52,880 bases of DNA, taken from the NCBI GenBank assembly GCA_964636345.1, contig CAZWRL010000002.1, forward strand, positions 1 to 52,880, given 5' to 3'. The notes under the pieces are model-generated. The model did no database searches. It saw only the letters and a program-made list of their open reading frames with translations, and was not told the DNA's origin. This DNA comes from an uncultured Gammaproteobacteria bacterium (lineage in GTDB: Bacteria > Patescibacteriota > Patescibacteriia > Magasanikbacterales > JBBTXJ01). The position numbers and the translations under genes were made by a program. Position 1 is the first letter of the stretch; each line of letters starts with the position of its first letter. Positions 1 through 2,699 of the stretch are shown here, piece by piece.

Positions 1-204
1 AGTTTGGGGCGCGAGACCACCAAGCGCGATATTGATTATGTGATGAACATATTGCCGGCCGTGGTGGAACGATTGCGCGAGATTTCGCCGGTCAATTTGC
101 AATTGGATGAACAGGGGAGGCCGAAAGAAGATGAGCGAAAGCCGGTATTTGCCGCGGCGTTTGTTGGTGACGGCATGCCGCATTGGATGAGTAGGAAGCC
201 GTAA
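1..204 (+). CDS. cysteine desulfurase (NifS/IscS family), C-terminal fragment; the 5' end lies outside the window
   Basis: Frame 1 is open from base 1. SLGRETTKRDIDYVMNILPAVVERLREISP resembles the conserved C-terminal segment of class I cysteine desulfurases. The fragment sits directly upstream of the NifU/IscU scaffold gene. Confidence 0.65.
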   Translation, partial: SLGRETTKRDIDYVMNILPAVVERLREISPVNLQLDEQGRPKEDERKPVFAAAFVGDGMPHWMSRKP

Positions 205-251: not shown

Positions 252-2066
252 ATGCCAAATCTTGTTGCAAAAAAACAAGGGAATGATGTGGTGAATGAAA
301 AAACCGGACAATCGTGGGTGTATTCGGCCATTGTGAAAGATCACTTTTTCCATCCGCGGAATTTACTGTTGGAAGAACCCGCAGAAGATGCGTTTGACGC
401 ACGCGGAACCGTGGGTAGCCCCGCATGTATTGTTCCTAAAACATTGGTGGACGGCCGTGAAGAAACAAGGGCAATCTCCGAAGCAATGATTGGCCAAGAA
501 GTTTACACCCATGACGGCCACTGCCAGGCGGTAACAAAAATTTATCGTCCGCAATATAAAAAACAATTGGTAACACTCAAAAATCAACTTGGCCAACTCA
601 CCGCAACCGCCGATCATTTGATTTACGGCCTTGTATTACCGCGAAGCGCCTCTTACTTCATGAAAACGTCAGCTAAAAAAAGAGTACCTCCCGCGTGGCA
701 TCATGCATCGGAATATAAAAAAGGTGATATCACCATGTATCCGTTACAAAAAGAAATGACGGAAGAGACGGAAATAGCCCTTCCGAAGTGTGTAAGGAAC
801 GCATGGGATTTTAGAAGCAAATCGTTACCACAGAAATTAGTACTTACTGCAGAAACTCTTGAATTATTTGGCTATTTTGTCGCGGAGGGGCATACCAAAG
901 AAGACGGAAGCGAGGTTGGTTTTACTTTTGCACAGCATGAAGGGCACTACGTGAAACGCGTACAAAAATTAATGGAAAAGTACTTTGGGATTCAAGTGTC
1001 TTATAAAGAAAGACCTTTGAATCATCGTGTTGATGTCATTGCATATAATGTTCACCTTGCTCGCCTATTTAAAACATGGTTTGGTAGGTGTGCGCAAGAA
1101 AAACAGGCGCCAGCATTTTTAATGAATCTTACTCCTGTTATTCAGGCGGGATTTATTAGGGGTGTCTGGCGTGGCGATGGTTGTGTTAACTTAAAACGCG
1201 CGTATCCTCGTGCGGAGTTTGCGACGACGTCATACAAATTATCGCAACAACTGCGCCGTCTTCTCTTACGACAAGGCATCATACCCTCTGTGTATCAAGA
1301 AAAAGAAAAGACGGTAAAGGGTGTACATCATGAAAAATCATACCGACTTCACGTGGGCGACACGACTTCGCTTGCAAAATTATGTAAATTGTTGGGTATG
1401 CCTTTCGTAAAACGAACCGGTCGAAAATCTACGCAGGAAGTTTGGATGGATGAACATTACGTTTATCTACCGGTACGAGAGGTCAATGAAACGGCGTGGA
1501 AGAGCGAACGATTATACAATTTTGAAATTGCAAATGCTCATACGTATACTACTGATGCCTTTTTGGTGCATAATTGTGGAGACGTTATGGACGTATGGAT
1601 TAAAGTTGAACCCAAAACTGAACGCCTCGTTGATTTTAAATGGAAAACTTTTGGGTGTGGTTCCGCTATTTCTGCGACATCAATGTTTTCTGTGATGCTC
1701 ATGGAAAATGGCGGCGCAACGCTGGAAGATGCGCTGAAAGTAAGGCCGCAACACATTATGGAGCGTTTAGGCGGATTGCCTAATCGGAAAATTCATTGTT
1801 CGGTGTTGGTAGATAAAGCGTTTCGCAAAGCCGTCAACACATATTTTCGCAACACGGGGCAGTATGGCCGTATTATCAATGAAACCGGCCGTGTGGTTGA
1901 CGAAAAATTAAACATCACTGACCACGATATTGAAGAGGCGGTTTTAGAAGGCGCGACCACGCTTGAGGAAGTGCAGAAAAAATTAAAAGTTGGCGTCGGC
2001 TCGCCCGAGGCGATTCCGGATATTGAACAGTTAATCAGATTTTATAGCGAGAAATATTATGGGTAA
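252..2066 (+). CDS. nifU: NifU/IscU-type Fe-S cluster scaffold protein interrupted by an intein (604-aa precursor, about 221 aa after splicing)
   Basis: Extein sequence VKDHFFHPRN...GTVGSPA / CGDVMDVWIKV...FKWKTFGCGSAISATS...KIHCSVLVDKA matches the IscU motifs (GxPACGD, GCGSAI, HCS). 383 aa are inserted between GSPA and CGD. Confidence 0.9.
   Translation: MPNLVAKKQGNDVVNEKTGQSWVYSAIVKDHFFHPRNLLLEEPAEDAFDARGTVGSPACIVPKTLVDGREETRAISEAMIGQEVYTHDGHCQAVTKIYRPQYKKQLVTLKNQLGQLTATADHLIYGLVLPRSASYFMKTSAKKRVPPAWHHASEYKKGDITMYPLQKEMTEETEIALPKCVRNAWDFRSKSLPQKLVLTAETLELFGYFVAEGHTKEDGSEVGFTFAQHEGHYVKRVQKLMEKYFGIQVSYKERPLNHRVDVIAYNVHLARLFKTWFGRCAQEKQAPAFLMNLTPVIQAGFIRGVWRGDGCVNLKRAYPRAEFATTSYKLSQQLRRLLLRQGIIPSVYQEKEKTVKGVHHEKSYRLHVGDTTSLAKLCKLLGMPFVKRTGRKSTQEVWMDEHYVYLPVREVNETAWKSERLYNFEIANAHTYTTDAFLVHNCGDVMDVWIKVEPKTERLVDFKWKTFGCGSAISATSMFSVMLMENGGATLEDALKVRPQHIMERLGGLPNRKIHCSVLVDKAFRKAVNTYFRNTGQYGRIINETGRVVDEKLNITDHDIEEAVLEGATTLEEVQKKLKVGVGSPEAIPDIEQLIRFYSEKYYG
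426..1574 (+). mobile_element. intein with LAGLIDADG homing-endonuclease domain (383 aa) inside nifU/iscU
   Basis: Starts with Cys (TGT at 426) and ends with HN (AAT at 1572-1574), followed by a +1 Cys (TGT at 1575). Block B TxxH is present (LTATADHLIYG). Two LAGLIDADG motifs are present (LFGYFVAEGHT and AGFIRGVWRGDGCV). The terminal block is NFEIANAHTYTTDAFLVHN. Confidence 0.85.
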
Positions 2067-2409
2067 ATGCAACAATTGCCATTGTTCCGGTGAAAAGGAT
2101 CATATTCAAGTGTGCGAATCCAAAACCTGCGGACCCAAGTGGAGTAGAGATATTATGAGCGAGCTTGAACGTTCTTTGGGTTTAAAAGCGGGCGAAGAAA
2201 ACAATACCGCGCGTTTGGAATACCGCGGTTGCCTGGGGTACTGCGAGGAAGCAAACAACGTGGCGGTGAATGGCAATATTCTGTCCAGCGTGATACCATC
2301 AGAGGCGGTGGCGCGTGTTGAAGAAGCGCGCAAACTCCCGCCGGGGGATTACACTAAGGGCGAGTTTAAAAATCTTAATTTGGACGATGACGCGTTTCTT
2401 GGCCTCTAG
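2059..2409 (+). CDS. thioredoxin-like [2Fe-2S] ferredoxin family protein
   Basis: Cys pattern VCESKTCGP ... GCLGYCEEANNVAV (C-x4-C ... C-x3-C) is typical of NuoE/thioredoxin-like 2Fe-2S ferredoxins. Overlaps the nifU stop by 8 nt. Confidence 0.6.
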   Translation: MGKCNNCHCSGEKDHIQVCESKTCGPKWSRDIMSELERSLGLKAGEENNTARLEYRGCLGYCEEANNVAVNGNILSSVIPSEAVARVEEARKLPPGDYTKGEFKNLNLDDDAFLGL

Positions 2410-2417
2410 TATAGTAT

Positions 2418-2699
2418 ATGCCCGATGTAAAACGAGAAAACAATCAAGATATAGGTCTTCGTAAAAAGGGAAAATATAGAAAAGTTGTTATAGACCGCGA
2501 TACGTGCATCGGCGCGGCAAGTTGCGTTGCAGTTGGACCGGGTTCGTTTCAGCTTGACGCGGAAAACAAGGCGTATCTGGTAGATCCGGAAAAATACGAT
2601 GACGCAACATTGCTCCTCGCGGCGCAATCATGTCCCGTGAACGCCATTTCCGTGTTTGATGAAGAAGGAAATCAAATTTGGCCGCCGAAACAACCATAA
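2418..2699 (+). CDS. small single-cluster ferredoxin (3Fe-4S/4Fe-4S type)
   Basis: VVIDRDTCIGAASCVAVGPGSFQLD...AAQSCPVNAISV matches the CxxxxxC...CP ferredoxin signature. Confidence 0.75.
   Translation: MPDVKRENNQDIGLRKKGKYRKVVIDRDTCIGAASCVAVGPGSFQLDAENKAYLVDPEKYDDATLLLAAQSCPVNAISVFDEEGNQIWPPKQP

Follow-up and report, generated by a model that had tools for sequence, protein, structure and literature searches.

A probable class-1 intein with a nested LAGLIDADG endonuclease at the first cluster-ligand cysteine of a U-type iron-sulfur scaffold in a Patescibacteria genome

The interrupted scaffold gene and its insert

The DNA considered here, called the window below, is the whole stretch of 52,880 nucleotides (nt) that was analysed; it makes up one entire contig (G000:C2; CAZWRL010000002.1) of assembly GCA_964636345.1, from an uncultured bacterium placed by GTDB in the Magasanikbacterales (Patescibacteriota). 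Near its start lies an open reading frame (ORF) for an iron-sulfur (Fe-S) cluster scaffold protein of the NifU/IscU type, which is interrupted by a segment inserted at GSPA/CGD (the slash marks an insertion point or junction throughout), precisely between the Ala and the first cluster-ligand Cys. We hold with high confidence that this segment (positions 426-1574) is a canonical class-1 intein with a nested LAGLIDADG homing endonuclease, and that its host is the one scaffold gene of the nifU/iscU type in a reduced genome of the Patescibacteria, or Candidate Phyla Radiation (CPR). The features of the locus are collected in Table 1.

Once the insert was conceptually removed, the host protein regained a full-length NifU_N domain. 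In the unspliced precursor, the Pfam profile NifU_N (PF01592) matched at profile positions 32-123 only, whereas in the conceptually spliced extein of 221 amino acids (aa) it matched at positions 2-123 (E 4.3e-33, 114.6 bits versus a cut-off of 22). The predicted junction peptide of the spliced scaffold is GTVGSPACGDVMDVWIK, and the restored GSPACGD aligned without gaps with the solved IscU/NifU chains 4eb5_C, 7c8m and 9wfy, the first of these, the IscU of A. fulgidus, matching the spliced extein at E 1.4e-29. In these alignments the +1 Cys falls on the first ligand cysteine of the solved IscU proteins. The ligands of E. coli IscU we take to be, by the established numbering, Cys37, Asp39, Cys63, His105 and Cys106, and on this numbering and the alignment with solved IscU the +1 Cys is the equivalent of Cys37. 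The corresponding cluster-site residues C442, D444, C469, H515 and C516, together with G443, were invariant in an alignment of 67 full-length homologues (A1), which are 35-59% identical to the window's protein. The score lay below the cut-offs of two equivalog models, that for NifU proper (TIGR02000, 124.5 bits versus 273.3) and that for IscU (TIGR01999, 94.6 versus 192.4); the protein is therefore neither NifU proper nor a canonical IscU, and the best name for it is U-type (NifU N-domain) scaffold. Its tail is BFD-like and has no Cys.

The insert itself was matched by the Pfam model LAGLIDADG_3 (PF14528) at E 4.6e-19, and the NCBIfam model TIGR01443 (intein_Cterm) scored 17.2 bits in the precursor against a cut-off of 15.6; the intein portions of the NCBIfam models for Tes, DnaB, RNR, PolII and GyrA matched it as well. 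Conservation was assessed both in A1 and in a second alignment of 20 inteins alone (A2, 34-53% identity). The residues C1, H64, N365, E367, H372, H382 and N383 and the +1 Cys were invariant in both (67/67 and 20/20). In block B, G56 was likewise invariant and T61 conserved in at least 90%, while the two predicted catalytic acids of the endonuclease, E154 and D251, were invariant in A2 (20/20) and at least 90% conserved in A1. A2 was also invariant at G149 and G155 of the first LAGLIDADG motif and at G246, W248 and G252 of the second. At every conserved splicing and nuclease position the window's copy carries the consensus residue, with no gap.

The predicted fold points in the same direction. 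An AlphaFold2 model, built on the 67 homologues and covering the precursor from end to end, reached a mean predicted local distance difference test score of 87.9, and its top match in the PDB (Foldseek) was the TliVMA intein 7qsu (E 1.2e-21, template modelling score 0.77 on the target). Further intein matches were PI-SceI, PhoVMA, PI-PkoII and PI-PfuI, the E values ranging from 1e-21 to 1e-13; next in rank stood IscU (4eb5, 2z7e, 7c8m and human ISCU) along with free-standing LAGLIDADG enzymes, I-DmoI among them. For the endonuclease fold, the matches were I-DmoI, I-Tsp061I and the nuclease domains of PI-SceI and PI-PfuI. The solved homing-endonuclease inteins (TliVMA and PhoVMA, 7qsu/7qss/7qst; PI-SceI, 1vde/1lws; PI-PfuI, 1dq3; PI-PkoII, 2cw7) thus have the same two-domain architecture and fold, but they share only 12-19% sequence identity with the present intein, reside in V-ATPase, RNR or DNA polymerase, and differ from it in the Asn of its block F. 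By sequence, the intein alone found a single weak hit in the PDB, PI-PkoII at E 5.5e-4. Two other candidates, a lineage-specific domain that is not an intein and a BIL/Hint-only domain, were considered and dismissed.

These results bear directly on a first-pass annotation made from the letters of the window alone, which had proposed an intein with a LAGLIDADG endonuclease that splits GSPA/CGD at the first ligand Cys. Domain searches, conservation and predicted fold all support the element; alignment to solved IscU and the recovery of NifU_N on excision support its site, and the claim that the +1 nucleophile is the first cluster-ligating Cys agrees with the same structures. The block B TxxH (here TADH) and the two LAGLIDADG motifs it named were located in the translated sequence. 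Its coordinates (426-1574, Cys1 at 426, +1 Cys at 1575) were right, except that 1572-1574, given there for the terminal His-Asn, is the Asn codon alone.

Table 1. Features of the scaffold locus, in window coordinates.
Feature	Position	Strand	Basis or remark
nifU/iscU-type scaffold ORF, 604 aa	252..2066	+	Open frame, ATG at 252
N-extein of NifU/IscU, 58 aa, C-terminal end GTVGSPA	252..425	+	Matches residues 5-59 of relatives' intein-free alleles
Class-1 intein (predicted), 383 aa / 1149 nt, with LAGLIDADG homing endonuclease	426..1574	+	LAGLIDADG_3, intein_Cterm, conservation, fold
Block A, CIVPKTLV	426..449	+	Cys1 (TGT, 426-428), first nucleophile, in frame with ATG 252
Block B, GQLTATADHLIYG	591..629	+	Thr61 and His64; TADH at 606-617
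LAGLIDADG motif 1, LELFGYFVAEGHT (LELFGYFVAEG; LFGYFVAEG)	858..896	+	LAGLIDADG_3; predicted catalytic Glu154
Block D, holding Lys226	within 1092-1112	+	Lys226 nearly invariant
LAGLIDADG motif 2, GFIRGVWRGDGCV (FIRGVWRGDG; IRGVWRGDG)	1149..1187	+	Predicted catalytic Asp251
Block F, RLYNFEIANAHTYTT	1509-1553	+	N365, E367 and H372 invariant
Block G, DAFLVHN	1554-1574	+	intein_Cterm; His-Asn (CAT-AAT) at 1569-1574; H382 and N383 invariant
+1 Cys (TGT), first cluster ligand	1575-1577	+	Invariant
C-extein of NifU/IscU, begins CGDVM	1575..2066	+	NifU_N positions 32-123; +1 Cys at 1575-1577
TFGCGSAI motif with FGCGS, second ligand Cys	1647-1670	+	In C-extein
KIHCSVL motif with KIHCS, His and third Cys	1788-1808	+	In C-extein
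Cys-less BFD-like tail	1881-2063	+	Pfam Fer2_BFD match weak, below cut-off
3' end of nifS/iscS-type cysteine desulfurase, 67-aa open frame	1..204	+	Cut at contig start
Thioredoxin-like [2Fe-2S] ferredoxin gene, likely operon partner or client	2059..2409	+	PF01257, E 4e-9
Single-cluster [4Fe-4S] ferredoxin gene	2418..2699	+	PF13370, E 2.3e-10; PF13459, E 8.5e-10

Occurrence, empty alleles and mobility

A search of 5.8 billion proteins returned at least 180 clusters with the same arrangement, nearly all of them divided at GxPx/C...HN/CGD, and the recurrence of one architecture with the same junctions in so many database proteins places it far beyond chance. When GTDB was scanned with one genome per species, a relative was found in at least 181 species, and among the best 80 loci of that scan at least 73 carried the intein at the NifU site. 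By record title the hosts comprise Patescibacteria (Sungiibacteriota, Nealsonbacteria, Gribaldobacteria and Paceibacterota), DPANN archaea (Woese-, Pace-, Nano-, Iain-, Micr- and Undinarchaeota), other archaea (Methanomassiliicoccales, Bathyarchaeia and two Asgard lineages) and other bacteria (Omnitrophota, Elusimicrobiota, Planctomycetota and WOR-1). Few genomes, on the other hand, have the element: an evenly drawn sample of the phylum contained it in 2 of 401 (that of the window among them), and in the order it is present in one of about 37 NifU-bearing genomes. An insertion at this site had been called uncommon in the first-pass annotation, which holds when genomes are counted; the allele itself is nevertheless spread widely over both domains. 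Bacterial hosts are mingled with archaeal ones in the intein tree, which requires at least 11 changes between Bacteria and Archaea labels, at least 7 of them forced; some of these transfers may have moved the whole gene, because the extein tree also needs 9 such changes.

Relatives of the intein were sought exhaustively with HMMER, which retrieved 4441 representatives with E <= 1e-3, of which 53 had E <= 1e-30. The nearest ones beyond the NifU group are found in OFOR/PFOR beta subunits (WCPG/C...HN/CGDFGI), in TrxR-like flavoproteins (C-A-V/C...HN/C-D, inside the CxxC), in UDP-glucose dehydrogenase (GGS/C) and in radical-SAM proteins. Among the metagenomic OFOR-beta and TrxR relatives examined (P0138, P0146, P0158, P0151, P0179, P0182 and locus L096), the OFOR-beta inteins P0138, P0146 and P0158 and the TrxR-like inteins P0151 and P0182 align with ours along its entire length at 28-34% identity (E 1e-42 to 1e-29) and likewise stand directly before a functional cysteine, although their host proteins are unrelated to NifU. 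OFOR-beta WCPG/CGDFGI and NifU GSPA/CGDVM have CGD in common at +1 to +3, and we infer that the shared P-x/C-G-D context could have permitted an ectopic jump from one gene to the other. Inteins are generally positioned before a functional cysteine, so that this position is no peculiarity of the NifU case.

One indirect indication of mobility comes from empty alleles. About 36 of the 60 same-order species genomes contain nifU, and in all of these the gene is free of the intein, query residues 59 and 442 being directly joined in the match. Seven empty sites, of the form ...GSPA/CGD..., were recovered; six of them share 45-48 of 60 nt with the joined flanks of the window around GGTAGCCCCGCA/TGTGGAGAC, and the seventh shares 34 of 60. 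A careful extein tree of 36 close alleles had intein-bearing metagenomic alleles and intein-free genome alleles interleaved, with 5 changes between presence and absence, 4 of which are forced by supported branches. The intein-bearing P0008 and the empty G042 have identical exteins, and P0034/G003 and P0021/G019 are near-identical extein pairs.

The closest extein of all belongs to P0098, encoded at locus L101 on a 3-kb contig of SRR22388089; it is 92% identical at the protein level, and the collinear DNA is 72-84% identical. Its GSPA/CGD site (site a) is empty. The survey of relatives for intein-free alleles that the first-pass annotation had proposed therefore found them both in the same-order genomes and at L101. 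In the same host gene (890-2629 of that contig), however, P0098 harbours another LAGLIDADG intein, also directly before a ligand Cys but at the second one (KTFG/S...HN/CGSAI, corresponding to 1654/1655 in the window). This intein has 358 aa, begins with Ser1 instead of Cys1, and is only 21% identical to the window's. Two unrelated inteins thus sit at two ligand cysteines in sister alleles.

Composition sets the insert apart from its surroundings. GC content at third codon positions (GC3) is 0.371 in the intein and 0.452 in the extein, against 0.500 +/- 0.028 (minimum 0.446) in the other long ORFs of the contig, the baseline being 64 equal-sized in-frame windows of these ORFs; for the intein this amounts to z = -4.7. 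As an observation aside, one contig ORF of at least 250 aa has a GC3 of 0.967, versus about 0.50 in the others.

Several stages of an intein's life are represented at this one site. Among the metagenomic relatives, P0086, P0089 and P0091 have mini-inteins of 144-164 aa without endonuclease, and P0142 has a full-length intein with decayed LAGLIDADG motifs (GYLLGYGD, LWNNRGC) that have lost their acidic residues, which is what a homing cycle predicts. In the intein tree the window's copy groups with P0008, P0066 and P0026 (support 96); in the extein tree P0008 and P0066 belong to the same-order clade that contains the window, and P0026 branches immediately outside that clade. Such a grouping suggests a resident intein lineage. 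P0034, one of the two nearest exteins, has a distant intein. Taken together, these findings are consistent with a homing cycle in which invasion and fixation are followed by decay and loss.

Genomic setting, splicing and rival readings

Upstream of the scaffold gene, the window begins inside nifS. The rest of this gene was located at the 3' end of another contig (G000:C24; L099 1339-2631; Aminotran_5, E 1.9e-75), where it terminates in ...SLGRETTKRDIDYVMNIL, the first residues of the window, the two contig ends overlapping by about 54 nt. From this shared terminal sequence it follows that the two contigs are neighbours and that nifS adjoins nifU. Downstream, beyond the two ferredoxin genes of Table 1, lie rsmI and metG. 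The only other LAGLIDADG intein of the genome interrupts the DnaB helicase at its classical site (G000:C3:16342-19596, L001, minus strand), with the junctions LRESG/CLTGDT...IIVHN/SIEQDAD.

The assembly break within nifS falls about 425 nt before the intein site, and such a contig start would favour the idea that a chimeric metagenome assembly joined the insert into nifU. This idea was dismissed: the junctions are in frame and exact to the codon, and the same architecture recurs in the protein clusters and in the independently assembled genomes described above, which leaves a chimera with practically no chance of being the explanation.

How much hangs on the intein is indicated by the gene content. 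In the assembly (782 kb in 57 contigs, estimated completeness 97.7%) we found one NifU_N gene and no SufB/D-type (SUFBD) protein. With a single scaffold gene and no SUFBD, Fe-S assembly in this organism should depend on splicing of the intein; the same dependence, claimed from the window alone in the first-pass annotation, is strengthened by this inventory.

The splicing pathway, homing by cleavage of empty alleles and the dependence of the host on efficient splicing are all inferred here from the mechanism of the family. On that mechanism, translation would yield the 604-aa precursor, in which Cys1 would undergo an N-S acyl shift; the thioester would be attacked by the +1 Cys, the later Fe-S ligand; the terminal Asn would cyclise with the aid of the penultimate His; and an S-N shift would then leave the 221-aa scaffold with its GSPACGD motif whole. 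Only after splicing would the scaffold be able to receive sulfur from NifS, encoded next to it, and assemble clusters. The freed endonuclease, in turn, would cut intein-free nifU at the conserved site, and repair would copy the intein in. Homing of this kind would explain the sporadic, polymorphic and cross-domain distribution, and a selfish element in a host that has no other scaffold must splice efficiently.

On a quite different reading, the insert would be a Hint/LAGLIDADG relic that has decayed and no longer splices, nifU would effectively be a pseudogene, and clusters would be supplied by an unrecognised system or by a host cell. CPR bacteria are thought to be host-dependent, which would suit this reading, as would the weak Pfam matches to Hint and the Asn that replaces Asp in block F. 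Set against these, the frame of 604 codons is open, every catalytic residue is that of the family consensus, no ligand is missing from the extein, which shares 92% identity with its nearest relative, Fe-S client genes stand alongside, and the block F Asn is shared by the whole family. On the open frame, the consensus residues and the retained ligands we dismissed the relic, and consider it very improbable.

Some points do weigh against the intein as we read it, and they are of several kinds. The Pfam matches to Hint_2 and Intein_splicing are weak and lie below their cut-offs, for which reason the Hint assignment is made through TIGR01443 in combination with the conserved blocks and the fold of the model; of the Pfam evidence that the first-pass annotation had looked to, LAGLIDADG_3 was thus obtained, and Hint only below its cut-off. 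Position 4 of block F is Asn, versus Asp in many class-1 inteins; since it is invariant across the aligned family, we regard it as a family trait and not as decay. Splicing and DNA cleavage are activities predicted from sequence and model. No recent donor was found, the best intein identity among the sampled copies being about 52-53%. The large trees are quick builds, and for some related loci the organism name given by NCBI is a placeholder. Finally, a second scaffold could sit in unassembled sequence of the 57-contig genome.

The location of the insert before a ligand thiol raises yet another possibility, namely conditional protein splicing, in which a disulfide between Cys1 and the +1 Cys, or Zn, Fe or a nascent cluster, would arrest splicing, the supply of mature scaffold would track the redox or metal state of the cell, and the intein would be retained for this benefit. 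Cys1 and the +1 Cys, both thiols, are indeed invariant in every copy seen, the genome has one scaffold only, and the nearest inteins in other hosts also occupy redox or ligand cysteines (OFOR-beta CPG/CGD; the CxxC of the TrxR-like proteins). There are precedents as well: oxidative as well as nitrosative stress reportedly affects splicing of the M. tuberculosis SufB intein, and disulfide-trapped inteins are known from archaea. The invariance of the two cysteines is nevertheless uninformative, because both are required for splicing and scaffold function regardless, and A2 revealed no further conserved cysteine within the 20 inteins. Moreover, the distribution is of the selfish type, nearly all close relatives lacking the intein and alleles with identical exteins being polymorphic for it, whereas one would expect a clade to have fixed a switch that is adaptive; the conserved endonuclease residues, for their part, argue for selection for mobility. 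Retention for a regulatory benefit accordingly appears unlikely to us, and the sporadic distribution leads us to regard the element as selfish and not kept for regulation.

In view of these precedents, a coupling of Fe-S assembly to redox, which the first-pass annotation had suggested as a possibility, is nonetheless chemically plausible. In its boldest form the intein would be a maturation gate for the only scaffold, with Cys1 and the ligand Cys having to be reduced and free of metal, and new scaffold would be released only once the cell can use it. More generally, one intein lineage may have become a specialist on ligand and redox cysteines of Fe-S and thiol enzymes (NifU Cys37, the CPGC of OFOR-beta and the CxxC of TrxR), and may have passed among them by way of similar P-x/C-G-D targets. 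We put this forward as an improbable proposal.

Relation to known inteins and significance

Inteins are best known from replication and repair proteins and from SufB. The SufB (Pps1) intein of M. tuberculosis offers a close comparison, being likewise of class 1, with Cys1 and a +1 Cys, and likewise placed in an essential protein of Fe-S assembly. Its host, too, needs splicing for Fe-S biogenesis, and it is the studied precedent for stress-sensitive splicing (PMC8891592). It differs in belonging to a SUF-system host, as against the NifS-partnered U-type scaffold described here, and in that the +1 Cys of the NifU intein directly ligates the [2Fe-2S] cluster on the scaffold. Full-text literature searches turned up no description of an IscU/NifU intein, which is not proof of absence, and the main text of the 2015 intein survey (PMC4760082) does not mention one. 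This is thus a new host and a new site for a well-known type of element, and public records title such proteins merely 'iron-sulfur cluster assembly scaffold protein'.

What distinguishes this intein is the double duty of one residue, which would be both a splicing nucleophile and a cluster ligand of a U-type Fe-S scaffold, in a genome apparently without a backup scaffold. The gene would offer a compact and easily expressed system in which to ask whether redox state, metals or cluster loading gate splicing. For annotation, the finding points to an unrecorded intein in several hundred public records titled only 'scaffold protein'. For the family, filled and empty alleles on identical exteins would make it a case of ongoing homing, in which the element spreads between CPR bacteria and DPANN archaea of shared habitats.

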